This document shows positions 9,802 to 43,831 of a stretch of 43,879 nucleotides of DNA, in pieces. This DNA is from Candidatus Methylomirabilota bacterium (lineage in GTDB: Bacteria > Methylomirabilota > Methylomirabilia > Methylomirabilales > 2-02-FULL-66-22). Below the pieces are notes generated by a model. It did not search any database, had not been told where the DNA came from, and saw only the letters and a list, made by a program, of their open reading frames with translations. The stretch is taken from assembly GCA_016208645.1 (NCBI GenBank), contig JACQXP010000106.1:1-43879 (forward strand). The letters run 5' to 3'. Positions within the stretch are counted from its first letter, which is position 1. Every line of letters starts with the position of its first letter. The position numbers and the translations under genes were made by a program.

Positions 9802-9884
9802 TTCGACGTTCAATGTGCAATGTTCAACGTTGAACCTCGAACCTCGAACCTGGAACCTTGAACGTCGAACCTCGAACGTTGAGC
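9801..9884. repeat. 7-nt-period array, inverted layout: GTTCNNN x4 then NNNGAAC x8
   Basis: Reads gttcgac gttcaat gtgcaat gttcaac | gttgaac ctcgaac ctcgaac ctggaac cttgaac gtcgaac ctcgaac gttgagc. It starts on the last nt of the ddl stop. A GGCCTCGCCGAGGCC palindrome follows (9885-9899). Confidence 0.9.
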
Positions 9885-9923: not shown

Positions 9924-11006
9924 ATGCTGTATCACCTGCTGGTCCCGCTGGCCAAGACGTTCGGGCCGTTCAACGTCTTCCGGTATGTCACGTTCCGGAC
10001 GGCCGGGGCCTTCCTCACGGCCCTGGTCGTGGCCATGATCCTGGGGCGGCCGATCATCCAGAAGCTCTCGACCATGCGCGCCCGGCAGGTGATCCGGGAC
10101 GATGGGCCCCAGACCCACCTGAAGAAGGCCGGCACGCCCACCATGGGCGGCGTCCTGATCCTGCTGGCGGTGGCCTCGGCCACGCTGCTCTGGGCGCAGC
10201 TCACCAACCGGTTCATCTGGCTGGCCCTGCTCAGCATGCTGGCCATGGGGGCGGTGGGTTTCGTGGACGACTACCTGAAGCTCAAGCGGGCCACCAGCAC
10301 GGGCCTCCGCCCGCGGCAGAAGTTCTTCTGGCAGGTCCTGATCGGCCTTCTGGTGGGGGGCTACCTGTACTTGTTTCCCACCGACCAGTTCACGACCAAG
10401 CTGGCGATTCCGTTCCTGAAGCGCTGGCTGCCGGAGCTGGGCCTCTGGTACATCCCCTTCGCCATGGTGGTCCTGGTGGGCTGTTCGAATGCAGTCAACC
10501 TGACGGATGGCCTGGACGGCCTGGCCATCGTCCCCACGCTGATGGCGGCGGCGACTTTCACCCTGTTCGCCTACGTGGCGGGCCACGCCACCATCGCCCG
10601 CTACCTCCAGGTGATCTTCGTGAAGGGGTCGAGTGAGCTGCCCATCTTCGCCGCCGCGCTGGTGGGGGCCAGCCTGGGCTTCCTCTGGTTCAACGCGCAC
10701 CCGGCCCAGGTGTTCATGGGGGACACGGGATCTTTGGCGCTGGGCGGGGCGCTGGCCACCGTCGCCCTGGTGACCAAGAACGAGCTGATCCTGGTGGTGG
10801 CCGGGGGCTGCTTCGTGGTGGAGGCCCTGTCGGTGATCGTCCAGGTGTTCTGGTTCCGGCGGACCGGCCGGCGGATCTTCCGCATGGCGCCCATCCACCA
10901 TCATTACGAGCTGAACGGTCTTCCGGAACCCAAGATCATCGTCCGGTTCTGGATCGTGTCCTTCGTGTTGCAGGTCATCGCGCTGACGACGCTCAAACTG
11001 AGGTGA
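9924..11006 (+). CDS. mraY: phospho-N-acetylmuramoyl-pentapeptide transferase MraY
   Basis: MLYHLL...FNVFRYVTFR...GTPTMGG...NAVNLTDGLDGLA...HHHYEL are canonical MraY motifs. Confidence 0.96.
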   Translation: MLYHLLVPLAKTFGPFNVFRYVTFRTAGAFLTALVVAMILGRPIIQKLSTMRARQVIRDDGPQTHLKKAGTPTMGGVLILLAVASATLLWAQLTNRFIWLALLSMLAMGAVGFVDDYLKLKRATSTGLRPRQKFFWQVLIGLLVGGYLYLFPTDQFTTKLAIPFLKRWLPELGLWYIPFAMVVLVGCSNAVNLTDGLDGLAIVPTLMAAATFTLFAYVAGHATIARYLQVIFVKGSSELPIFAAALVGASLGFLWFNAHPAQVFMGDTGSLALGGALATVALVTKNELILVVAGGCFVVEALSVIVQVFWFRRTGRRIFRMAPIHHHYELNGLPEPKIIVRFWIVSFVLQVIALTTLKLR

Positions 11007-11069
11007 GAGCGGAGAGCCGCGAGCCGAGAGGGGAGAAGGCAGAAAGCAGAAGGCAGAAGGCAGACGGAG
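11007..11069. repeat. 7-nt-period array, 9 units (GAGCCGA / GAAGGCA type)
   Basis: Reads gagcgga gagccgc gagccga gagggga gaaggca gaaagca gaaggca gaaggca gacggag. It starts 1 nt after the mraY stop and runs into MurD-homologous sequence. Confidence 0.9.
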
Positions 11070-13607: not shown

Positions 13608-13712
13608 GTGGCGATGGAAAATGGAAAATGAAAAACCGACAACTGACAACGCAAAACCGAAAACGAAACTTGACCGGTTGTCCGTTGTCGGTTGTCAGTT
13701 TTGCATTGGCAG
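13608..13712. repeat. 7-nt-period array, about 15 units, inverted layout
   Basis: Reads gtggcga tggaaaa tggaaaa tgaaaaa ccgacaa ctgacaa cgcaaaa ccgaaaa cgaaact tgaccgg | ttgtccg ttgtcgg ttgtcag ttttgca ttggcag. The right-arm units are reverse complements of the left CNGACAA units. Confidence 0.9.
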
Positions 13713-16318: not shown

Positions 16319-17227
16319 ATGATCGCCACGAAGGACCTCGCGGAAGAGCTGCGCGCCACGCTCCGGGGGAACGTGCTGGCGCACGAGCCCATGGTGCGGC
16401 ACACCTCGTTCAAGATCGGAGGGCCGGCCGATCTCTTGGTCATCCCCGAGGATGTGGAGGATCTGAAGGTGGCGATGGCCTTCGCCCGATCCAAGGGGCT
16501 GCCGTCGTGGGTGCTGGGCAGCGGGAGCAACACCCTCGTCCGCGACGGGGGCATCCGGGGGATGGTGGTCCTGCCCAGCGCGTTTCAAGCGCTCGCGCGG
16601 GCGGGCAACGAGGTGACGGCCGGCGCCGGTGTCCGAGTCAGCCGGCTGCTCGCCTTCTGCAGCAAGCAGGGCCTGACCGGATTGGAGATCCTGAGCGGCG
16701 TGCCCGGTACGGTCGGCGGTGCCGTCTGGGGGAACGCCGGCGCGTGGGGCGGAGCGACGGCCGACCACCTGGCTCGCGTACAGGTGGTCACGGACACCGG
16801 AGAGGAACTGACGCTCGAGCGGGAGGCGATCCCCTTCCGCTACCGGTTCTCCGGCCTGCCCAAAGGATCGGTGATCGTCCAGGCGACCTTCGCCCTGGCC
16901 CCGGGGGACCCGGCCGCCATCCGGCAGCGGATCTCCCGGTGGCTGGTCCAGCGGAATGCCACCCAGCCCGTGGAGTTCCGATCGGCGGGCTCCATCTTCA
17001 AGAACCCGCCCCGCGACTTCGCGGGGCGGCTGGTAGAGGCGGCCGGGGTGAAGGGCACCCGGATCGGCGGCGCCATGATCTCCGAGAAACACGGGAACTT
17101 CTTCGTGAACCTGGGAGATGCCCGGGCGGCCGACGTGCTGGCACTGGTGGCGCTGGCCCGGGAGCGGGTTCGCCAAACGGCAGGGATTGATCTGGAGTTG
17201 GAGATTCGGGTCGTCGGCGAGGACTAG
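16319..17227 (+). CDS. murB: UDP-N-acetylenolpyruvoylglucosamine reductase MurB
   Basis: HTSFKIGGPADLL, GSGSNTLV and GSIFKNP motifs. FAD-binding PCMH type. Confidence 0.93.
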   Translation: MIATKDLAEELRATLRGNVLAHEPMVRHTSFKIGGPADLLVIPEDVEDLKVAMAFARSKGLPSWVLGSGSNTLVRDGGIRGMVVLPSAFQALARAGNEVTAGAGVRVSRLLAFCSKQGLTGLEILSGVPGTVGGAVWGNAGAWGGATADHLARVQVVTDTGEELTLEREAIPFRYRFSGLPKGSVIVQATFALAPGDPAAIRQRISRWLVQRNATQPVEFRSAGSIFKNPPRDFAGRLVEAAGVKGTRIGGAMISEKHGNFFVNLGDARAADVLALVALARERVRQTAGIDLELEIRVVGED

Positions 17228-17310
17228 AAACTGGAAGATGGAAACTGGAAACTGGCAGCAGGCAGTTGGTTCTTCAGCATCCAATTTCCAATTTCCAGTT
17301 TCCGATTTCC
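17227..17310. repeat. 7-nt-period array, 12 units, inverted layout (GAAACTG ... AATTTCC)
   Basis: Reads gaaactg gaagatg gaaactg gaaactg gcagcag gcagttg gttcttc agcatcc aatttcc aatttcc agtttcc gatttcc. It starts on the last nt of the murB stop. Confidence 0.9.
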
Positions 17311-17319
17311 GGAGTTGCC

Positions 17320-18144
17320 GTGATTAGAGACTACCACACGCCCCGCTGGCGGGGCGGGCAGGGGAGGCGGGGGCGCGAGCGCTATCCGCGCCTGGCGCGC
17401 CTGCTCAAGATCCTGGGGGTCGTGCTCGTCCTCGCGGGGACCGGCGCCGGCCTCTGGGAAGGGTACCGGGCGGTCCTCCGCCTGCCCTACTTCCGGGTCG
17501 CGGAGATCCAGGTCGAGGGCAACCTCCAGGTGGCGAGCCAGGACATCATCGCCGGCCTGGCCCTGGCCCCGGAGACCAGCATCCTGGAGGTGGATCTCCC
17601 CGCCTTGGCGGGGCGCCTGCTGGAGAACCCTTGGATCAAGGAGGCCTCGGTGGGGCGGCGGCTCCCGCTCTCGCTCACCATCCGCGTCGTGGAGCGGATG
17701 CCGGAGGCGGTCTTCATCGCGGACCGGCGCTACCTGCTGAGCGCCGACGGCGTGATCCTGGCAGAGCTGGCCGAGGACGAGCTGCCCACGCTCCCGACGC
17801 TGCGTGCCGCCAGCCCGCGGCAGGTCACCATCGGCCAGCGAATCCTCACCTCGGAGATGGCCCAGGGCCTGTCGGTCTGGCGTCAGTTCCAGCTCGCCAA
17901 CGCGCTGCAGGAGGAGAAGGCCCACGAGATCGCGATGACGGGGGACGGGAGCTACGTGGTGAACCTGGGACAGCAGATGCCGGTGATCCGGCTGCGGGCC
18001 CAGGACATGGAGGGGCAACTGGGCCGGCTGGGCGCCGCGCTGTCCGCCAGCGGCCAGGCCCTGGAGCGGTTCGGTGACGTGGATCTGCGCTTTCGCGACC
18101 GGGTGATCTTCAAGCTCGCAGCGGGGACGACGGTCCGGCCGTAA
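17320..18144 (+). CDS. ftsQ: cell division protein FtsQ (POTRA domain)
   Basis: Basic N-terminus, TM segment LLKILGVVLVLAGTGAGLW, then POTRA-like FRVAEIQVEGNLQVASQDI. GTG 17320 is preferred. The ORF-track start 17266 lies inside the repeat array. Confidence 0.85.
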   Translation: MIRDYHTPRWRGGQGRRGRERYPRLARLLKILGVVLVLAGTGAGLWEGYRAVLRLPYFRVAEIQVEGNLQVASQDIIAGLALAPETSILEVDLPALAGRLLENPWIKEASVGRRLPLSLTIRVVERMPEAVFIADRRYLLSADGVILAELAEDELPTLPTLRAASPRQVTIGQRILTSEMAQGLSVWRQFQLANALQEEKAHEIAMTGDGSYVVNLGQQMPVIRLRAQDMEGQLGRLGAALSASGQALERFGDVDLRFRDRVIFKLAAGTTVRP

Positions 18145-21606: not shown

Positions 21607-21863
21607 CGCCTCTCGCCCCCAATCTCTGTTGCCTGCATCTCGATCGTTCGCTCCTCTCTCCCCTTGAGCCCCTCTGCCGCCCGTGATCCTTTGCCAAAAC
21701 ATAGAAGGGAAGTGTGTTTGTTGGTGCAAAAGCAACTCCACGCCAGTTTCTCTGCTCCAGGCCCGACCGGCGCGGCCCCCCGCGATTTACCAAGAGGGAG
21801 GTCACCACTCCCAGATTTGAGTCTATTCGGAGGCAGACGAACATCGCCGGACACTCCTCCGGG

Positions 21864-22271
21864 CTAGATGAACGAGACCTTATGGGTAGCCCCCGTCACC
21901 ACGAAGACCCGCTCGTTGTTCGACTCGGTGTCCGCCGGGATGACGAAGAACCCCGGCCGACTGGAATCATACCCCTGGGTGGTGCCAACAAGGATCTCTC
22001 CGTCCTTGAAGACCACCCGGATCTTTCGTCCCACCGCAGGCTTTTCGCGGTCGAACTCCTGGCGGCGCTTGTACGGCTGCGGTCTTCCCGCGAGGTTCTT
22101 GACGAAGAATATGGCCTTGAGGTCGGCGACGCGCACCTCCACAGGCTTTGATTGCGGGGGAGCGTCCGCGGGCGTGAGGTGCAAGGTTGGCTTGGTTTGG
22201 AGGAAGTCCCCAGTGAAACCCTTGAGGATCCGGCCATCCTGATAGTGAACCACGACCTTATTCTGGCCCAT
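21864..22271 (-). CDS. hypothetical protein, two internal beta-rich repeats (135 aa)
   Basis: ATG 22271 follows AGGAAGGGGGGAAG on the minus strand. KVVVHYQDGRILKGFTGDF...PAD...VRVADLKAIFFV repeats as KIRVVFKDGEILVGTTQGY...PAD...VFVVTGATHKVSFI. I cannot name a family. The ORF-track start at 22373 looks over-extended. Confidence 0.6.
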   Translation of the reverse strand: MGQNKVVVHYQDGRILKGFTGDFLQTKPTLHLTPADAPPQSKPVEVRVADLKAIFFVKNLAGRPQPYKRRQEFDREKPAVGRKIRVVFKDGEILVGTTQGYDSSRPGFFVIPADTESNNERVFVVTGATHKVSFI

Positions 22272-22672
22272 CGGTCTTCCCCCCTTCCTGCATGCCACAT
22301 CCCCCGTCGCAAGTGAAGGGCGAAGCAATTCTCTGGGTCGTGGCACTGGGCCACCCGAAATGGCCGCTGGCAACTGGCGTGAGGCCGCTGTGGCAGGGTA
22401 ACAACCCCGTCATCCCGCGTCAAGCGGCCGACACCCGGCGGGAATTGGGAACTCGGTGGTCCAGGAAGGATAGGCGTGGGCGTGAGGGGCGGCGCGCCGG
22501 TGGCGGAGACCCCGCGGGCCATGGACCTCCGAGCGTACGCGCCGAAGGCGGCCGCAACAGCGGCAGTCGGTGTGGATCGCGACGCCTTCCTTCGGTTTGT
22601 GGGACGTAGGGCGGGTATCGCGGTTTTCCTGGACGGGGGCTGGAGGGGCGACGGGGTGGTTGGACGCTCTGG

Positions 22673-22948
22673 TTACTCATAGATGACCTGATGCCGTCCG
22701 ATGCTGTGAAAGAGGACCTCGTCGGCTTCAAGAAACTCGAACACAACACGGATGTCGTGCGTGACGGAAAAAGCCCACAGATCTTTCAGTCGGCCCGACA
22801 GTTTGTGCGTGCGCAAGCGGGGATCAAAGGGGTTCGCACGAAAGATGCGCTCTCGGGTTTCGGCCATCTTCTGGGTTTCGGGTGGGAGGCGCTTGTACTG
22901 ACGGGCGAAGTGGGAGGTTACCCGGATGGTCGCAACCGGGCGCTTCAC
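22673..22948 (-). CDS. RelE/ParE-superfamily type II toxin
   Basis: 91 aa with ...HKLSGRLKDLWAFSVTHDIRVVFEF..DEVLFHSIGRHQVIY, the typical RelE/StbE-like C-terminal pattern. GTG 22948 overlaps the antitoxin stop (GTGA). Confidence 0.8.
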   Translation of the reverse strand: MKRPVATIRVTSHFARQYKRLPPETQKMAETRERIFRANPFDPRLRTHKLSGRLKDLWAFSVTHDIRVVFEFLEADEVLFHSIGRHQVIYE

Positions 22949-23208
22949 CGGAGGTCCGAGAGAGAGTTGATCTTCCGGGTCTTGCCCCGTTTGTGTTCTT
23001 CGCGACCCTCGGCCACCACCCGAAGGAGATGCTCCTCTTCGAGCTCTCGCAAGCGGGTTTGCATGCTCTCGAAGGTCTCATAATCGAGCAAGACGGCGAC
23101 CGGCCGTGAACGCTGGATCAACGTCCAAGGCTGCCTGTGCTCCCGCAGATCCTTGACGACCTGGGTTACCCCCTGGCGCAGGGTGCTGATGCTGATGATC
23201 TTTGCCAT
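22945..23208 (-). CDS. Phd/YefM-family type II antitoxin
   Basis: MAKIISISTLRQGVTQVVKDL...RPVAVLLDYETFESMQTRLRELEEE is the Phd/YefM N-terminal fold pattern. ATG 23208 follows GGGGAGG. The 217-aa ORF-track version is over-extended. Confidence 0.8.
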   Translation of the reverse strand: MAKIISISTLRQGVTQVVKDLREHRQPWTLIQRSRPVAVLLDYETFESMQTRLRELEEEHLLRVVAEGREEHKRGKTRKINSLSDLR

Positions 23209-23238
23209 CCTTTTAACCTCCCCACTGAGTGTACTGTC

Positions 23239-23267
23239 AACATATAGGCTAGCGATACAATTGTCAA
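23239..23267 (-). promoter_or_regulatory. candidate promoter of the Phd/RelE operon
   Basis: The minus strand reads TTGACA (23267-23262), 17-nt spacer, TATGTT (23244-23239). A second TTGACAGTACAC lies just downstream and could be an operator half-site. Confidence 0.45.
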
Positions 23268-23488
23268 GGCATGACCTGAGAGCCGAGAGTCGGAGGCCCG
23301 CTGGGCGGCCGAGAATCATGATCTGCCCTCGCGCACTTCTGGTGCCCCCTTGCACCTCCGCACCTCTGCTCCCCTGCATCGCTGCCCAGGGCACAAAGGT
23401 ACAAACACCTTGAACTCCCACGATTGCGCTGGTAGCATGCTTTCCACGTCCGGCCAGGGGAGCCGGACGGCCTTCCTGTGGTGAGCGC

Positions 23489-25222
23489 ATGATCTGGCAA
23501 TTCAAAGAGAAGGCGCGCCAGCGTCTGGCCCAAGAGACCGGAGCGGTCGTCAAGGACTGGGGCGGCCGCCTCCGCATCGCCCTGGTGTTTCCCAACACCT
23601 ACTACGTGGGGATGTCCAACCTCGGGTTCCAGACCATCTACTGGCACCTGAACCAGCGCCCCGGCATCGTCTGTGAGCGGGCCTTCCTTCCCGACCCCGA
23701 GGATCTGCCGGAACACGACCGCCTGCGGGTCCCCATCCTCAGCCTGGAGTCGCAGCGGCCCCTCGCCGAGTTCGACTGCGTGGCCTTCTCCACGACCTTC
23801 GAGAACGACTACCTCAACATGCTCAGGATCCTGGACCTGTCGGGGATCCCGGTCCGGGCGGCCGACCGGGGGCCGGGCGACCCCCTCGTGACCATGGGCG
23901 GCGTCTGCGCCTGGGCCAATCCGGAGCCTCTGGCTCCCTTCGTGGACTGGTTCTTCCTGGGGGAGGGGGAGGAGTCCAGCCACGAGGTCTTCGATCTGTG
24001 GCAGCAGGTCCGCGAGGGGGAGCGCCAGCCGGAGGCGGCGCGGGAGGAGTTCTTCCGGGCCCTCCCAGGGATCGAGGGGATCTACGTCCCGCGGTTCTAC
24101 GACGTGAAGTACCACGAGGACGGGAGCGTGGCCGACGTCGTTCCCTACGACGGGGCACCGCTGCCCGTGCGGAAGCGGCGCCTGGCACGAACCGACGACT
24201 ACGACACGGTCTCCATGGTCCGGACGGCCAACACCGAGTTCGGCGAGATGGCCCTCCTGGAGGTGGGGAAGGGGTGCGGCCGGGGCTGCCGCTTCTGCAT
24301 GGAGGGCGAGATCTATCGCCCGGTCCGGCACCGGCACATCGACGCCATCCTGCGCGCCGCGGAGACGGCGCTCCAGCGCGGGAAGCGGATCGGGCTGGTG
24401 GGCGCCTGCGTCTCCGACTACCCCTGGATCGACGAGCTGATGGCGGCCCTGCGGGCCAGAGGGGTGGACGTCTCCCTCTCCTCGGTCCGGGCCGACAGCT
24501 TGAGCCCCGGCCTGGTCCAGGGGCTCTTGGAGAGCGGCTCGCGGACGCTGACCATCGCCCCCGAGGCCGGGACGGAGCGTCTCCGGACGGTGATCCACAA
24601 GAGCCTCACCGATCAGCGCCTGTTCGAGGCGGTGGACCTCATCGCCGATTCCGGCGTCCCCCGGGTGAAGATGTACTTCATGATCGGCCAGCCGACGGAG
24701 ACGGCCGAGGACGTCGCCGGCATCATCGAGATGGCCAAGAAGGCCCGGCACCGCATCCTGCAGAAGCGGCGCGATCCCAAGAGCCTGGCGGAACTCACCG
24801 TGGGGGCGAGCTGCTTCGTGCCCAAGCCCTGGACCGCCTTCCAGTGGTGTGCCATGGCGGAGGTCCGGGCGTTGGAGGAGAAGATCCACCATCTCCAGCG
24901 GGAACTCCCGCGGGTCGGCATCCGCTTCACCCACGACGTCCCCAAGTGGGCCTTCCTCCAGGGAGTGCTGGCGCGGGGGGACCGCCACGTCGGAGACCTG
25001 TTGTCCCTGGCGCTCACGCACCGGGGCGACTGGAAGCGGGCCTTTCGGGAGTGGCCCCGCAACGCCGACTTCTACGCCTGTCGGGAGCGACCACTCACGG
25101 AACGGTTCCCCTGGGACCACTTCGAGGTCGGGACCAAGCGCGAGCGCCTGGAGATCGAATATCAACGCGCCATGGGCGTTGTGCCCGAGCGGCCGGTGAA
25201 GTGGAAGGCCTCGCTGGCGTGA
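23489..25222 (+). CDS. radical SAM protein with an N-terminal B12-binding-like domain (TIGR03960-like by recollection)
   Basis: CGRGCRFC (CxxxCxxC) cluster motif. N-terminal IALVFPNTYYVGMSNLGFQTIYWHLN. Confidence 0.88.
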   Translation: MIWQFKEKARQRLAQETGAVVKDWGGRLRIALVFPNTYYVGMSNLGFQTIYWHLNQRPGIVCERAFLPDPEDLPEHDRLRVPILSLESQRPLAEFDCVAFSTTFENDYLNMLRILDLSGIPVRAADRGPGDPLVTMGGVCAWANPEPLAPFVDWFFLGEGEESSHEVFDLWQQVREGERQPEAAREEFFRALPGIEGIYVPRFYDVKYHEDGSVADVVPYDGAPLPVRKRRLARTDDYDTVSMVRTANTEFGEMALLEVGKGCGRGCRFCMEGEIYRPVRHRHIDAILRAAETALQRGKRIGLVGACVSDYPWIDELMAALRARGVDVSLSSVRADSLSPGLVQGLLESGSRTLTIAPEAGTERLRTVIHKSLTDQRLFEAVDLIADSGVPRVKMYFMIGQPTETAEDVAGIIEMAKKARHRILQKRRDPKSLAELTVGASCFVPKPWTAFQWCAMAEVRALEEKIHHLQRELPRVGIRFTHDVPKWAFLQGVLARGDRHVGDLLSLALTHRGDWKRAFREWPRNADFYACRERPLTERFPWDHFEVGTKRERLEIEYQRAMGVVPERPVKWKASLA

Positions 25223-26085
25223 CCCGTTCACCGGTTCACCGTCTCCCCGATTCTCCGGTTCTCGTCCAATCCGAGATATTTCAGGAGTCGGACAGGGTCG
25301 CACACGCCTTCAGCACGCGGCAGGGTGGGGTGAGCCGGGCGCCCTTCGCCACGCTCAACCTGGGGACGAGCGTCGGCGACGATCCCCAGGCGGTGGAGGA
25401 GAACCGGCGCCGCTTCTTCGGGACATTCGGCATCGAGCCGTCGCAGGTGGTCCGGGTCAAGCAGGTGCATGGCGACGGGGTGCTGGTGGTGGATGAGACG
25501 CTGGTGGCCCGCCGGGGGTTCCCGCGCCTCCTCCTGGATGAGCGCTACGAATACGATGCGCTGATCACCAATCTCCCGGACTTGGCCCTGGTGGTCTCCA
25601 CGGCCGACTGCCTGCCGCTCTTGGTCCACGACCCGGTCCGCGGGGCCGTGGCGGCCGTGCACGCCGGCTGGCGGAGCACGGCCAAGCGGATCACCGCACG
25701 GGCGCTCCTGGCCATGACGGTCGCGTACGGGACGAATCCCGGGGACTGCCGGGTGGCCATCGGGCCCGGCATCCGCGGCTGCTGCTACGAGGTGGATGCG
25801 GCGGTGACCGATGCCATGCGGGCTGCCCTACCCGCCTGGGAGGAGCACGCCGCGGCGTCCCGACCCGGTCACGTCCGGCTGGACCTGGGAGGGGTGAACC
25901 GCGCCCTGCTGGAGGGTGCGGGCGTCCGCCCGGACCGGATCGACGACGTGGGCCTCTGCACCGCCTGCCGGCGGGACCTGTTCTTCTCCCATCGGGCGGA
26001 GAAGGCGCGAACCGGCCGGATGATGAATCTCATCCTATTGAGAGCCGAGAGCCGAGAGCCGAGAGCTGAGGGCCGAGAGGCGTGA
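25219..26085 (+). CDS. pgeF: purine nucleoside phosphorylase / peptidoglycan editing factor PgeF (YfiH/YlmD, DUF152)
   Basis: AFSTRQGGVS..PFATLNLG...VKQVHG...DALIT...TADCLPLL...AVHAGWR...CCYEV...CT..FFSHR are classic YfiH motifs. GTG 25219 overlaps the rSAM stop. The last ~16 codons are encoded by the repeat array. Confidence 0.85.
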   Translation: MTRSPVHRLPDSPVLVQSEIFQESDRVAHAFSTRQGGVSRAPFATLNLGTSVGDDPQAVEENRRRFFGTFGIEPSQVVRVKQVHGDGVLVVDETLVARRGFPRLLLDERYEYDALITNLPDLALVVSTADCLPLLVHDPVRGAVAAVHAGWRSTAKRITARALLAMTVAYGTNPGDCRVAIGPGIRGCCYEVDAAVTDAMRAALPAWEEHAAASRPGHVRLDLGGVNRALLEGAGVRPDRIDDVGLCTACRRDLFFSHRAEKARTGRMMNLILLRAESREPRAEGREA

Positions 26086-26123
26086 AGCGTGAAACGTGAG
26101 GCGAGAGGCGAGATAGGGGAGAG
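26040..26123. repeat. 7-nt-period array, 12 units (GAGAGCC x5 then GTGAAGC/GAGAGGC types)
   Basis: Reads gagagcc gagagcc gagagcc gagagct gagggcc gagaggc gtgaagc gtgaaac gtgaggc gagaggc gagatag gggagag. It contains the pgeF stop (26083-26085) and ends at the msrP SD. Confidence 0.9.
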
Positions 26124-26125
26124 TT

Positions 26126-27079
<954 letters not shown>

Positions 27080-27170
27080 GACAATGCGAAATGCGGAGTG
27101 CGGAGTGCGGAATGGGCTGTCGCGGGTCGGCGTGAGGATTCCGCATTCCGCATTCGCCATTCCGCATTCT
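27080..27170. repeat. 7-nt-period array, about 13 units, inverted layout (CGGAATG ... GCATTCC)
   Basis: Reads gacaatg cgaaatg cggagtg cggagtg cggaatg ggctgtc gcgggtc ggcgtga ggattcc gcattcc gcattcg ccattcc gcattct. It starts 1 nt after the msrP stop. Confidence 0.9.
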
Positions 27171-38320: not shown

Positions 38321-38377
38321 GTGATGTCGCACACCATTGGTCATTGAAAATTGGTCATTGGTCATTGTGATGTCGCA
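38321..38377. repeat. 5-unit heptamer array (CATTGGT) bracketed by an 11-nt direct repeat
   Basis: GTGATGTCGCA (38321-38331), then cattggt cattgaa aattggt cattggt cattgtg (38335-38369), then GTGATGTCGCA (38367-38377). It ends at the SD of the next gene. Confidence 0.85.
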
Positions 38378-38394: not shown

Positions 38395-39369
38395 ATGCAG
38401 ATTGCCGGGATCATCGGAGGCGCACGCAAGGTCGTCCGCATCCTCGCGCGGGTCAGGGAAGGGGAGAAGGTCCTGATCGCGGCCGACACCGACACCCCCG
38501 TGGTCGCCGAGGCGCTGGCGACGGCCGCGCTGGAGATCACCCCCGAGGTGGTGACCACGATGATGACGCCCCGGGCCGTGGATGGCGACGAGCCGCCGGC
38601 CGTCGTGGCGGCGGCCCTCCTGGCGGCCGAGGTGGCGCTCATACCCGTGAGCTACTCGATCAGCCACTCGACGGCCGTCCACACCGCGCTCACGCACGGG
38701 ACCCGAGTCCTGTCGCTGCCGGCCACCACCCCCGACCAGCTCGTCCGGGGAGGCGCCGAGGCGGACTTCGAGGCGGCGTCGCCCATCGTGCGGAAGATGG
38801 GCGAGCGCCTGTCCGCGGCCTCCGCGGCGCATCTCACGACGCCGGCGGGCACCGACTGCACCTTCGACCTCCGCGGGCGCTCCGGGAACGCGCACGACTG
38901 CATCCTGGATCGCCCCGGCAAGTTCTCGGCCTTTCCCAATATCGAGGCCAACATCTCTCCCGTGGATGGAACGGCCGAGGGGGTGATCGTCTTCGACGGC
39001 AGCATTCCCAACCTTCGCCTGGGCCGCTTGCGCGATCCGGTGAGGTGCACGGTGAAGAAGGGGAATATCGTGAAGGTCGAGGGCGGCCCCGAGGCCGACA
39101 TGATCCGAAAGGTGTGGGCCGGGATGAAGGATTCGGCGGTGTACAACATCGCGCAGCTGGCCATCGGCCTGAACCCCGCCATCCCCATGCTCACCGGTGT
39201 GTGGGCCCAGGACCATGGCGCCTTTGGCACCGTGCACATCGGCATCGGGACCAGCGCCAATCTCGGTGGAACGACGAAGGCGGCCTGCCACTTCGACGGC
39301 ATGATGTACCGCCCGACACTGACGCTGGACGGTCGTGCGGTCCTGGAGGGTGGAGAGCTGCGAATCTAG
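38395..39369 (+). CDS. M29 aminopeptidase-T-fold / NicX-like metalloenzyme (function unknown)
   Basis: About 324 aa. By recollection the C-terminal half (...GVIVFDGSI...VKKGNIVKVEGG...IAQLAIGLNP...HIGIGTS...CHFDG...) is colinear with the 2,5-dihydroxypyridine dioxygenase / aminopeptidase T family. Confidence 0.65.
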   Translation: MQIAGIIGGARKVVRILARVREGEKVLIAADTDTPVVAEALATAALEITPEVVTTMMTPRAVDGDEPPAVVAAALLAAEVALIPVSYSISHSTAVHTALTHGTRVLSLPATTPDQLVRGGAEADFEAASPIVRKMGERLSAASAAHLTTPAGTDCTFDLRGRSGNAHDCILDRPGKFSAFPNIEANISPVDGTAEGVIVFDGSIPNLRLGRLRDPVRCTVKKGNIVKVEGGPEADMIRKVWAGMKDSAVYNIAQLAIGLNPAIPMLTGVWAQDHGAFGTVHIGIGTSANLGGTTKAACHFDGMMYRPTLTLDGRAVLEGGELRI

Positions 39370-39426
39370 TGCGGCGTCCCAGAAGTTCGCGGCATGAGGG
39401 GGCGCCCCCCGGAGAAAGGAGATCCC

Positions 39427-40275
39427 ATGCACATTGACCCGCGGAAATGCGTGGCCTGCGGGAACTGCCTGGCCGTGTGCCCCGTCAGCGCCATTTACAT
39501 TGATTCGGTGATCCGCCGCGCGACGGTCAACCTGGACGAGTGCGTGGAGTGCTACGCCTGCCACAACCGCATGAGCAAGGAGGACCTGAACCCTACCCTG
39601 GTCCGGACCATCCGGGGATTCTTCAAGCTGCTCCGGATCCGCTTCGACCCGGAGCCGGACGTGTGCCCCACCTCCGCCTTCGCGCCCCAGAAGCTGGCGT
39701 GGCCCCGCAGCATCCGCCAGGCCTTCAGCGATCCCTGCGTCCCGCACGAGAGCACGGGGGTCTACGGCCGCGGGACGGAGGAGGTCAAGACCAACGACGT
39801 CACGAACCGCGTGGGACCCGGCGAGGTGGGGTTCACCGTCGAGTTCGGGCGACCGGCGGTGGGGGCCCGGTTCCGGGAGGTGCAGGCGGTGACCATGGCC
39901 CTGGCCCGGATCGGCGCCACCTTCGAGAAGAACAACCCGGTCACGGCGCTGATGCCGGATCCGACGACCGGGGCCATCAACCCGGAGATCCTGGACGAGA
40001 AGGTGCTCTCCGCCATCGTCGAGGTGAAGACGCCGGAGGCGCTGCTGCCGGCCGTCCTCCGCACGGTGGAGGAGGTGTCGGCCACCCTGAACACCGTGGT
40101 CAGCGTGGGGGTGGCGGTCCGCTGCGACGGCGACGGCGAAAACCGCGTGGAGAAGGCGCTGGCCGGCGAAGGCTACCCGGTGTTCCGCGGCAAGACGAAC
40201 CTGGGATTGGGCCGCCTCACGAACCCGGAGGCCCAGGCCAAGACAGCCGGGGCGGCCGCCCCGGCCGGGCGATAA
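39427..40275 (+). CDS. uncharacterised ferredoxin-fusion protein, copy 1 (module gene A1)
   Basis: CVACGNCLAVCP (CxxCxxCxxxCP), then CVECYAC with the fourth Cys-Pro (DVCP) 34 residues later. A ~200-aa C-terminal domain follows (HESTG.YGRGTEEVKTNDVT...KTNLGLGR) that I cannot assign. ATG 39427 follows GGAGAAAGGAG. Confidence 0.8.
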   Translation: MHIDPRKCVACGNCLAVCPVSAIYIDSVIRRATVNLDECVECYACHNRMSKEDLNPTLVRTIRGFFKLLRIRFDPEPDVCPTSAFAPQKLAWPRSIRQAFSDPCVPHESTGVYGRGTEEVKTNDVTNRVGPGEVGFTVEFGRPAVGARFREVQAVTMALARIGATFEKNNPVTALMPDPTTGAINPEILDEKVLSAIVEVKTPEALLPAVLRTVEEVSATLNTVVSVGVAVRCDGDGENRVEKALAGEGYPVFRGKTNLGLGRLTNPEAQAKTAGAAAPAGR

Positions 40276-40300
40276 CCCCGATGTCTGACGGGAGCAGACG

Positions 40301-40981
40301 ATGACCAACACCCTTCACCGCTATGGGCCTCCGGAAAGCTTCCGGGACGACTTCATCGTCTTCATCCGGAACTCCAATGGGCGGAACGACGTCGGCTCCA
40401 TTCCGAAGCTCAAGGAGTTCCTGCGCACGGCGCTGCGGCACCGGCCGGTGACGATCTCGCAGTACCGGTTCGGCTCGACCGTCCGGCCGGCGGATCACCT
40501 GAACCCGCGCATCCACTGGACGCGGCCGGTCCAGGACCTGACGGCGGAGCAGATCATCGAGGCCATCACCAAGGATCACACCGTGGGGGCCATCTTCGAC
40601 TCGGAAGCGGCCATGGAGGCCTTCCTGCGGGAGGTCAAGGCGGCCGACTGGGGTCTCTCGGTGAACGTGGCCGGCCTCACGGCCCCGGTGCACGCCTGCG
40701 CCAAGCGGGCCGGCATCGTCCGGCACAGCGTGGAATACTCGCTAGGCTTCCAGGGGGCGCTGGACCGGCTGCCGGAGCGGCCGGTGCTGGAGCTGTCCAC
40801 CATGTGCGGCCACAGCATGCTGTCGCCGAACCTGGCGCGCAAGATGCTCGAGTGGGTCCGCGAGGGGCGCCGCACGCCCGAGCAGGCGGCCGCCTACCTG
40901 GGCCGGTTCTGCTCCTGCGGGATCTTCAACCCCGCCCGCGCGGTGCGCCTGCTGGAGGCGGCCCAAGGGGGGAACGGGTAG
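40301..40981 (+). CDS. uncharacterised Cys-rich protein, copy 1 (module gene B1)
   Basis: 226 aa with MTNTLHRYG..., RHSVEYSLGF, LELSTMCGH and FCSCGIFN. All four blocks are conserved in the paralog at 41978. Starts 25 nt after A1. Confidence 0.8.
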   Translation: MTNTLHRYGPPESFRDDFIVFIRNSNGRNDVGSIPKLKEFLRTALRHRPVTISQYRFGSTVRPADHLNPRIHWTRPVQDLTAEQIIEAITKDHTVGAIFDSEAAMEAFLREVKAADWGLSVNVAGLTAPVHACAKRAGIVRHSVEYSLGFQGALDRLPERPVLELSTMCGHSMLSPNLARKMLEWVREGRRTPEQAAAYLGRFCSCGIFNPARAVRLLEAAQGGNG

Positions 40982-40987
40982 CCCGTG

Positions 40988-41015
40988 CCTGCCCGGCCGG
41001 GGCAGGGAAGATTTT
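40988..41015 (+). terminator. weak terminator-like hairpin after B1
   Basis: CCTGCCC / GGGCAGG 7-bp stem with a 5-nt loop. The TTTT run begins 5 nt after the stem. Confidence 0.3.
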
Positions 41016-41025
41016 CGGGCCGCGC

Positions 41026-41055
41026 TTGACAGAGCGTCCGTAAGAGTGGTAGACA
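41026..41055 (+). promoter_or_regulatory. candidate internal promoter (TTGACA-N18-TAGACA), twin of 32713-32742
   Basis: CGCTTGACAGAG (41023-41034) and GGTAGACA (41048-41055) are identical to the gntR promoter core. An AT-rich leader with three CGAAAA repeats follows. Confidence 0.45.
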
Positions 41056-41138
41056 CAACGAAAATCTCGAAAAGTTTTTTCACGATACGAAAACCCTGGG
41101 GTCCCCGGCGGACCGGCCCGAACGCAGCGGAGGCTGTT

Positions 41139-41951
41139 ATGCAGATAGACCACGGCAAGTGCGTGGCGTGCAGCAACTGTATTCCCGTGTGCCCGATGGG
41201 CGCCATCTATATTGACCCGGCCGTGAACCGGGCGACCGTGAATCTGGACGAGTGCGTGGAGTGCTTCACCTGCTATCGGGGGATGAGCAAGGAACACCTG
41301 AACCCGACCCTGGTGCGGACGATCCGGGGTGTTTTGAAATACCTCCGGATCCGCTTCGACCCCGAGCCGGACGTGTGCCCGACGGACGCCCTCACCCCCC
41401 AGGCGCTCACCTGGCCCCGCATCGTGCGCCAGGCCTTCAGCGATCCTTTGGTCCCGCACGAGTCCACGGGGATCCACGGCCGGGGCACGGAAGAGGTGAA
41501 GACCAACGACGTGACCGGCCGGGTGAACGAGGGCGAGGCGGGCTTCACCATCGAGTTCGGGCGGCCCGGGGTGGGGGTCCGGTTCCGGGACATCCAGAAG
41601 ATGACCATGGCCCTGGCCCCGCTGCCGATCACCTTTGAGAAGAAGAATCCGGTGTTCAGCCTGATGAGCGACCCCGCCACCGGAACCATCCGCGAGGACA
41701 TCCTGAACGAGAAGGTCCTCTCCGCCATCGTGGAGCTGAAGACGGCGCTGGAGCACGTGCCGCAGGTCCTCCAGGTGGTGGAGGAGGTCGCCCAGGATCT
41801 GGAGACCATCCTGTCCATCGGGGTGGCCACGCGCTGCGATGGCCAGGGGGACAACGCCCTGGAGCCGATGCTCAAGCGTGAAGGCCACGAGTTCTACCGC
41901 GGAAAGACCAACCTGGGCCTGGGCCGGCGGCCGGCAGCCGTCTCCGCCTGA
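41139..41951 (+). CDS. uncharacterised ferredoxin-fusion protein, copy 2 (module gene A2)
   Basis: Colinear with A1 at roughly two-thirds identity by eye: CVACSNCIPVCP, CVECFTC...DVCP, HESTGIHGRGTEEVKTNDVT, KTNLGLGR. ATG 41139 follows GCGGAGG. Confidence 0.8.
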   Translation: MQIDHGKCVACSNCIPVCPMGAIYIDPAVNRATVNLDECVECFTCYRGMSKEHLNPTLVRTIRGVLKYLRIRFDPEPDVCPTDALTPQALTWPRIVRQAFSDPLVPHESTGIHGRGTEEVKTNDVTGRVNEGEAGFTIEFGRPGVGVRFRDIQKMTMALAPLPITFEKKNPVFSLMSDPATGTIREDILNEKVLSAIVELKTALEHVPQVLQVVEEVAQDLETILSIGVATRCDGQGDNALEPMLKREGHEFYRGKTNLGLGRRPAAVSA

Positions 41952-41977
41952 CCCGGCCCGCAGAGGAGCGATACGCC

Positions 41978-42699
41978 ATGACCAACACGCTGCACCGGTT
42001 CGGGAGCCGGGACAGCCTTCGGGACGACTACATCATCTTCGCCATGGCGGCCCGGGGGATCAACGACCAGGGGGCCCCGCCGAAGCTGCAGACCTTCCTC
42101 CGCCTGGCGTTGAGACACCATCCCATCAACGTCGGCAACGCCGTCAAGGGGGGGATCTTCCGGGCCTCGAAAGCCCTCACCCCCCTGGCCCACTGGCGCC
42201 GCCGGGAGTTCATTGCCCCCGAGGAGGTCGTCGAGAGCGTGGACACCTGCACCACGGTCTCCGCGGTCTTCGACGATCCCGCGAACCTGGAGGCCTTCCT
42301 GACCGAGCTGAAGGCGGCCGACCTGGGCATCTCCATCAACATCGCCGCCCTCACGGACGAGGCCCGGACGTGCTGCCAGCGGGCCGGGATCACCCGCCAC
42401 AGCGTCGAGTATTCCCTGGGGTTCCACGGGGACCTGAACCGGCTGCCGGACCGCCACGTCCTCGAACTCTCCACCATGTGCGGCCACGGGATGGTCGCCC
42501 ACAACCTGGCCAAGAAGATGCTGGATTGGGTCAAGGAGGGGCGCCGGGATCCCCGGCAAGCCGCCACCTACCTCGCCAAATTCTGCACCTGCGGCATTTA
42601 CAATACGACCCCACCTACCTCGCCAAATTCTGCACCTGCGGCATTTACAATACGACCCGGGCCATCCGCGTCCTCGAGGAAGCGCGGGTGGGGAAGTAG
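41978..42699 (+). pseudogene. module gene B2, frameshifted by a 47-nt tandem duplication (or assembly artefact)
   Basis: Colinear with B1 up to ...YLAKFCTCGIYNTT (42610). The proper C-terminus RAIRVLEEARVGK* (42658-42699) is in another frame. Deleting one 47-nt copy restores a 224-aa ORF. Confidence 0.8.
42564..42657 (+). repeat. exact 47-nt tandem duplication (2 copies)
   Basis: CCACCTACCTCGCCAAATTCTGCACCTGCGGCATTTACAATACGACC occurs at 42564-42610 and again at 42611-42657. Confidence 0.97.
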
Positions 42700-42826
42700 G
42701 AACGCCGTCCCCGCCGGGCGTCCGGTCCCCCAGATCCCGAGGGAGGCGAGGAGGGGAACGGGCGCGGCAGCCGTGGGGACGGTTGCCTTTGCGGCTGCAA
42801 CCTGTGTACAGAGAGGAGGGGGCAGA

Positions 42827-43831
42827 ATGCGTGCTGTGGGAGGCGTGGGCAGGCTTTTCCGCTGGGGGGGCATCCTGGCGCTCGGGCTCGTCCTCGTGGG
42901 GATCACGGGGGGGCAAGCCTGGGCTGCCACGGTCATCCGGCTCGGCCACGTGGCCTTTCCGGGCTCGCTCTTCGACATCGTGACCACCAGGTACGCCAAG
43001 GAGGTGAACGAGGCCCTCAAGGGCCGGGTGGAGATCAAGGTCTTCCACTCGAGCCAGCTTGGCACCGATGAACAGATGATCAAGGGGATCAAGGTCGGCG
43101 CCCCCGAGATGTTCATCCCGTCCACCATCATGAGCACGGTGGACCAGCGGTACGGCGTCTTCGAGATGCCCTACATCATCGTCAATCGTGCCCACATGAA
43201 ACGGGTGACGGAGCACGCCCAGGTTCAGAAGGCCCGCTTCGAGGGGCTCCCGGCCAAGGGGATACGGCTCCTCGGGGTGTGGGAGCACGGCTTCCGCCAC
43301 ATCACCAACACCGTCCGGCCCATCGTGAAGCCCGACGACTTGAAAGGAATCAAGCTTCGGGTGCCCGGCGGCATCTGGCGGGTCAAGATGTTCAAGGCGT
43401 ATGGGGCCAACCCATCGCCCATGCCCTTCGCCGAGGTCTACTCGGCCCTTCAGTCCGGCGTGATGGATGCGCAGGAGAACCCCTTCCCGCAGATCTGGTC
43501 GGCCAAGTTCCACGAGGTTCAGAAGTACCTCTCCCTGACCGGCCACGTCTATTCCCCCGCCTACCTGGTGGTGGGCGAGGAGTTCTGGCAGAAGCTCCCC
43601 AAGGATGTCCAGGCGACGATTGCCAAGATCTCCTGGGGGATGGGGGACTTTGCCCGTTCGGAGGGCGAGCGGTTGGACAAGGAACTGATGGCGAAACTGG
43701 CCCCCCCGATGAAGGCCAACGAGGTGGACAAGGAGGCCTTCATCAAGGCGTCGGCGGCCATCTATGAGGAGTTCGGCACGCAGGTGGCTGGGGCCGCCGA
43801 ACTGATCAAGCTGTTCCAGTCGCTCCGGTAG
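42827..43831 (+). CDS. dctP: TRAP transporter substrate-binding protein (DctP family)
   Basis: Signal peptide (GILALGLVLVGITGGQAWA), then IRLGHV..., EVNEALKGRVEIKVFHSSQLG, FEMPYI, LRVPG and ENPF, which are DctP-family patterns. ATG 42827 follows GAGAGGAGGGGG. It appears as the tail of the 617-aa ORF only because of the upstream frameshift. Confidence 0.9.
   Translation: MRAVGGVGRLFRWGGILALGLVLVGITGGQAWAATVIRLGHVAFPGSLFDIVTTRYAKEVNEALKGRVEIKVFHSSQLGTDEQMIKGIKVGAPEMFIPSTIMSTVDQRYGVFEMPYIIVNRAHMKRVTEHAQVQKARFEGLPAKGIRLLGVWEHGFRHITNTVRPIVKPDDLKGIKLRVPGGIWRVKMFKAYGANPSPMPFAEVYSALQSGVMDAQENPFPQIWSAKFHEVQKYLSLTGHVYSPAYLVVGEEFWQKLPKDVQATIAKISWGMGDFARSEGERLDKELMAKLAPPMKANEVDKEAFIKASAAIYEEFGTQVAGAAELIKLFQSLR

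Follow-up and report, generated by a model that had tools for sequence, protein, structure and literature searches.

A frameshifting 47-nt tandem duplication in a Methylomirabilota scaffold is probably an assembly artefact

The B2 gene in the 43,879-nt stretch of DNA analysed here (the window) is frameshifted by an exact 47-nt tandem duplication, and comparison with related assemblies suggests that the second copy is probably an artefact of scaffold joining and most likely absent from the organism. In the organism itself B2 would be intact (224 aa), and the dctP that follows it would be translated separately. The two explanations raised in the preliminary description, a very recent mutational event and an assembly artefact, both still stand and are the only serious ones.

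The 47-mer CCACCTACCTCGCCAAATTCTGCACCTGCGGCATTTACAATACGACC occurs in two head-to-tail copies on the forward strand, at 42564-42610 and 42611-42657, that are 100% identical (TRF: period 47, 2.0 copies, score 190), far above the chance expectation of about 4e-19 exact tandem repeats of such length from base composition; the back-to-back duplication first noticed in the letters alone is confirmed as a real feature of the deposited sequence. Period-47 identity spans 48 positions, leaving the junction ambiguous by one base (C), equivalent to 1 nt of microhomology, and the repeat edge is marked by a mismatch between 42563 (G) and 42610 (C). No 12-mer of the unit was found elsewhere in the window, and the junction between the copies contains no Ns. 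Read in the native frame, copy 1 gives B2 residues 196-211, (A)TYLAKFCTCGIYNTT, and copy 2 is extra sequence, absent from all relatives, that shifts the frame by +2. The unit does encode the FCTCG motif that had been described as conserved, covering C203 and C205, which are invariant in our family alignment, together with near-invariant G206 and N209. A local repeat search returned no flanking direct repeats, and folding of the DNA gave no significant hairpin at the duplication (fold z-score -0.62). With 1 nt of microhomology as the only such feature, nothing in the DNA favours slippage.

The duplication separates B2 from its own end. Residues 1-211 are in frame and intact from 41978 to the end of copy 1 at 42610, and the native 3' end, RAIRVLEEARVGK plus stop, now lies out of frame at 42658-42699, where it is readable in another frame as the preliminary description had reported; it contains near-invariant R212 as well as most of the terminal helix predicted for residues 210-222. 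Also as described there, the raw frame continues through a 127-nt spacer into dctP, producing a 617-aa in-silico ORF that starts at ATG 41978 and ends at 43831 on the forward strand and comprises B2 residues 1-211, 72 out-of-frame codons and DctP. Deletion of one copy in silico yields the expected 224-aa protein, which shares 54% identity with its paralogue B1 (226 aa) and stays colinear with that protein as far as the C-terminus. This repaired B2 is identical at 224/224 residues to the B2 of contig JACQZA010000444.1, and all eight nucleotide differences between the two genes are protein-silent. Among the matches listed, repaired B2 has more than 100 orthologues that are 68-98% identical to it, nearly all of them with a length of exactly 224 aa. 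Its pN/pS against four relatives is 0.05-0.15, which indicates that B2 is under strong purifying selection and rules out long-standing decay; we found neither relaxed selection nor a lesion common to relatives. The window does carry a private synonymous T (GAT, Asp) at 42526 on the forward strand, 38 nt upstream of the duplication, where 7/7 relatives compared have C.

We compared copy number across assemblies, and found that 15/15 related loci are single-copy (NCBI, ENA, JGI and Logan assemblies; 74-99.9% nucleotide identity across regions), with BLAST alignments that split exactly at the duplication and overlap by 48 nt on the subject side. Each of the ten loci carrying the best match has one copy (NCBI Rifle MAGs, ENA MEGAHIT assemblies and a JGI metagenome), and the 47-mer is present once in the GTDB species representatives. 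A 33-mer spanning the junction, GCATTTACAATACGACCCCACCTACCTCGCCAA, is absent from 241 million JGI metagenome records, and a window-specific 30-mer from the spacer likewise had no match in the JGI metagenome scan. The out-of-frame tail occurs in no protein of a 5.8-billion-sequence collection, in which only the in-frame B2 segment was matched, and exact look-up returned no identical protein on record for the 617-aa ORF, DctP or B1. The closest comparison is with JACQZA010000444.1, a contig of the candidate division NC10 MAG SR1-18-Sp65_coassembly_NC10_67_11 (PRJNA640378, 11x coverage as given in its name; hereafter the sister MAG), which is 99.1-99.8% identical to window positions 7866-43879 and contains one copy of the 47-mer; the block identical in both around the duplication site is 158 nt long. 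The comparison of orthologous loci proposed in the preliminary description thus gives one copy everywhere, including in this near-identical contig. The single-copy loci, the absent junction 33-mer and the absent tail protein together indicate that the duplication is private to one scaffold: a single assembly shows it, and the population's other, independent assemblies contradict it.

A single-copy version of the window's own haplotype exists, as shown by contigs from Logan run SRR12113406. This run encodes window-exact proteins, with contig L017 99.83% identical to the window and L020 99.82% identical over 4.4 kb. Contig L016 (k=31) carries B2 as a single copy and passes across the site without a break. 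The window and JACQZA010000444.1 differ at 13 sites between 41355 and 42723, and L016 agrees with the window at 12 of them; the exception is 42526, where it has the common allele rather than the window's private T. A well-covered 47-nt tandem duplication would branch a k=31 graph, and the unbroken path is therefore evidence for one copy and moderate evidence against the duplication. It is not decisive, because a k=31 path could switch haplotype between 42469 and 42526 and because a low-coverage loop could be pruned from the graph. From 42724 onward L016 is 77.6% identical to the window: where its positions 1501-1949 align with window 42724-43062, sequence identical through the end of B2 gives way to a spacer and dctP that are 77.6% identical. 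Either the k=31 path is chimeric or a co-occurring lineage has a recombination breakpoint directly downstream of B2; the divergence implies that the population's assembly graph branches within about 70 nt of the duplication, where contigs tend to end.

A scaffold join offers a plausible route to the duplication. The sister MAG was assembled with MEGAHIT at default settings, and its contigs were joined by the scaffolding function of IDBA-UD. If the window scaffold came, as we infer, from PRJNA640378 and the same MEGAHIT and IDBA-UD-scaffolder pipeline, two contigs truly overlapping by 47 nt (or more) would have been abutted by the scaffolder at 42610/42611, and the part of the overlap left unremoved would remain as an exact, N-free tandem duplication. 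Against this reading, an unsupported duplication cannot arise within a pure de Bruijn contig, so an artefact needs a join at exactly this position. The IDBA code probably handles non-positive gap estimates by trimming the estimated overlap without a sequence check; too low an overlap estimate would then leave an N-free duplication, and too high an estimate an N-free deletion. We also considered a link between k-mer size and the repeat, which gave no clean signature: the identical block is 158 nt and, to our knowledge, 47 is neither a MEGAHIT default k nor k-1. 

The sister MAG itself contains two private, N-free, frame-shifting deletions. One removes 122 nt from A1 with 2 nt of microhomology (window 39683-39802 region), leaving A1 called at 154 aa versus 282 aa elsewhere. 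The other removes 164 nt with 0 nt of microhomology (window 26149-26312) and hits the start of an Oxidored_molyb gene at 26126-27079 (an MsrP/YedY-like molybdopterin oxidoreductase), which is uncalled there. L017 retains those 164 nt, and the 935 nt that come after them match the sister MAG with 100% identity, so that at least this deletion looks like an assembly error; both deletions are probable mis-joins in the public contig JACQZA010000444.1. Between the window and the sister scaffold there are three large gene-breaking indels against 151 substitutions (35.6 kb), a ratio that suggests far more such lesions than natural variation under purifying selection would produce. Local assembly errors are prominent in IDBA-UD output, and scaffold joins that retain duplicate sequence despite contig overlap have been described (Chen et al., 2020, Genome Res, PMC7111523). 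The window case would resemble those errors in keeping a duplicate at a join and in giving a wrong gene sequence in an unpolished MAG, although the published duplicates have Ns between the copies whereas the window copies abut directly.

The main alternative is a genuine and very recent duplication, by replication slippage or unequal exchange in the strain, which we regard as possible though somewhat doubtful. Native B2 would then be truncated after residue 211, as a fresh pseudogene or a segregating loss-of-function allele, and its loss would be tolerated because the paralogous A1-B1 pair, including the 54% identical B1, is intact. The zero divergence between the copies is what a very recent event predicts, but no other assembly has the duplication, and the low pN/pS together with a protein identical to that of the sister argues against relaxed selection. 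A 94-nt duplication can be assembled faithfully from 150-nt reads and in high-k de Bruijn graphs, which speaks for a real event; against it, the window-haplotype Logan contig is single-copy and unbroken. The junction without Ns and a repeat length outside the MEGAHIT k values also fit a real event, against which stand the 1 nt of microhomology and the lack of slippage-promoting secondary structure. The private SNP 38 nt upstream speaks for the event as well: it could mark a distinct duplication-bearing haplotype, from which L016 may have switched before reaching the duplication. The A1 lesion in the sister strain could mean decay of duplicated modules, but at least one comparable sister-MAG lesion is contradicted by an independent assembly. 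Spontaneous short tandem-duplication frameshifts (slippage pseudogenes) are likewise exact, head-to-tail, not a multiple of three, located in coding sequence and undiverged between copies; they usually use several bases of flanking microhomology, however, whereas the window case has 1 nt, and it differs from them further in showing no population or phylogenetic recurrence and no other gene decay. If real, the duplication would be an ordinary fresh frameshift of a known kind, causing loss of function beside an intact paralogue. A stronger version, in which sister populations are independently inactivating different members of the duplicated A/B enzyme module (B2 here, A1 through the 122-nt lesion in the sister), is unlikely; were it true, the two lesions would show paralogue loss in progress, or else a knock-out allele that is unstable and can revert. 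Still more improbable is a reversible on/off switch in which the duplication is one of the states, with the copies reverting by recombination and both alleles present in the population. Exact 47-nt tandem copies are inherently unstable, and both states do exist among near-identical sequences, but the duplication occurs once, on one scaffold, with no recurrence among thousands of homologues and no repeat tract that would make it frequent.

The apparent B2-DctP fusion is without biological meaning whether the duplication is an artefact or genuine, because dctP is equipped with a ribosome-binding site, a start codon and a signal peptide of its own. The dctP gene (42827-43831, forward strand) encodes a 334-aa TRAP transporter solute-binding subunit (Pfam DctP 2e-78, NCBIfam TIGR00787) with its own ATG and an N-terminal signal peptide ending AWA, and relatives call it as a separate 334-aa gene. 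The 127-nt spacer before it (42700-42826, forward strand) holds a Shine-Dalgarno sequence, GGAGG, at 42815-42819. Promoter and terminator scans of the spacer detected nothing, and Rfam had no match over the whole window, spacer included; a regulatory RNA or attenuator in the spacer was dropped after these empty searches. That the 617-aa product is a real functional fusion protein is effectively refuted by comparison, and we give it practically no weight. The raw frame is indeed open from 41978 to 43831, but 48% of 72-codon windows in any frame are stop-free in this 68% GC window, and such read-through is expected of GC-rich DNA. The fusion is absent from relatives, where B2 (224 aa) and DctP (334 aa) are separate wherever both genes are complete, and no protein of the 5.8-billion-sequence collection spans the junction. 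Its 72-codon linker would be made of out-of-frame and intergenic sequence, the signal peptide of DctP would end up inside the protein, and dctP retains a GGAGG and an ATG of its own.

Repaired B2 is a typical full-length member of an uncharacterised family of 200-230-aa Cys/His-motif proteins, here called B, with 4,033 matches in a word-indexed search and 682 clusters at 50% identity in an exhaustive search. In an alignment of 88 sequences, R7, C168, G169, C203 and C205 are invariant and H6, H141, M167, H170, G206, N209 and R212 nearly so; repaired B2 matches the family over its full length and has R7, MCGH (167-170) and CxCGxxNxxR (203-212), including all five invariant residues. B2 as written in the window keeps the invariants but loses R212 and most of helix 210-222, the terminal helix of a confident AlphaFold model (pLDDT 94.3). 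No Pfam or NCBIfam model matched B1 or B2, a PDB search gave no sequence match, and no PDB fold matched the model significantly (best E 0.013); we could assign the B protein no function from these searches.

B2 lies in a repeated pair of genes. Its upstream partner A2 (41139-41951; 270 aa), identical in protein sequence in JACQZA010000444.1, has an N-terminal 4Fe-4S dicluster domain, and the preceding pair consists of A1 (39427-40275; 282 aa, 68% identical to A2, with an N-terminal 4Fe-4S dicluster domain, intact in the window) and B1 (40301-40981), all on the forward strand. NC10 relatives share the gene order TctC-TctB-TctA-NicX-like-A1-B1-A2-B2-DctP-DctQ-DctM-AlkZ-like. The module at 38395-42699, a NicX-like (M29-like) protein followed by two A/B pairs of a 4Fe-4S protein and a 224-226-aa B protein, sits between neighbours that include TctCBA and TRAP DctPQM transporters and a PrpD/MmgE gene. 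These neighbours suggest organic-acid catabolism, and the module may be an uncharacterised Fe-S enzyme of that process. In a more distant relative (L012 2211-4841, Logan SRR24079482), PrpD/MmgE and mandelate racemase/muconate-lactonizing-enzyme genes lie between A1-B1 and A2-B2, so that the two pairs may act as independent units.

The duplication matters mostly for quality control. If uncorrected, the record gives rise to either a spurious pseudogene or a spurious 617-aa "fusion protein", and hides an intact member of a widespread, uncharacterised Cys/His-motif family that always adjoins a partner with a 4Fe-4S domain, in a conserved NicX-like/Tct/TRAP cluster of NC10 bacteria. More generally, apparent gene inactivation in a scaffolded MAG of low coverage can stem from an N-free duplication or deletion.

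The window also contains intergenic tandem arrays of 7-nt units (one of 8 nt) at 9832-9877, 11005-11064, 13614-13700 and 17223-17310, with further arrays at 25222-25261, 26040-26103, 27083-27169 and 38335-38367. Two array pairs are mutually reverse-complementary and would fold into long hairpins; one combines AATGCGG (27083-27114) with ATTCCGC (27138-27169), the other ACTGGAA (17223-17255) with TCCAATT (17280-17310). Compared with JACQZA010000444.1, the heptamer hairpin arrays appear hypervariable. That contig has largely or entirely different heptamer arrays at 11030-11065 and 17229-17320, differs by one 7-nt unit at 26060, carries an extra 110 nt of GGGGGTC-type repeats upstream of ftsZ (~19510) and is missing the array at 38332-38367, which in the window is flanked by the 11-nt direct repeat GTGATGTCGCA. 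Between ftsZ and a radical SAM gene, within an otherwise conserved dcw (cell division, cell wall) cluster, the region 21620-23400 contains two gene pairs, one nucleotidyltransferase/HepT-like and the other made up of a YafQ-like toxin and its Phd/YefM antitoxin, as identified from gene calls on Logan contigs L018 and L020.
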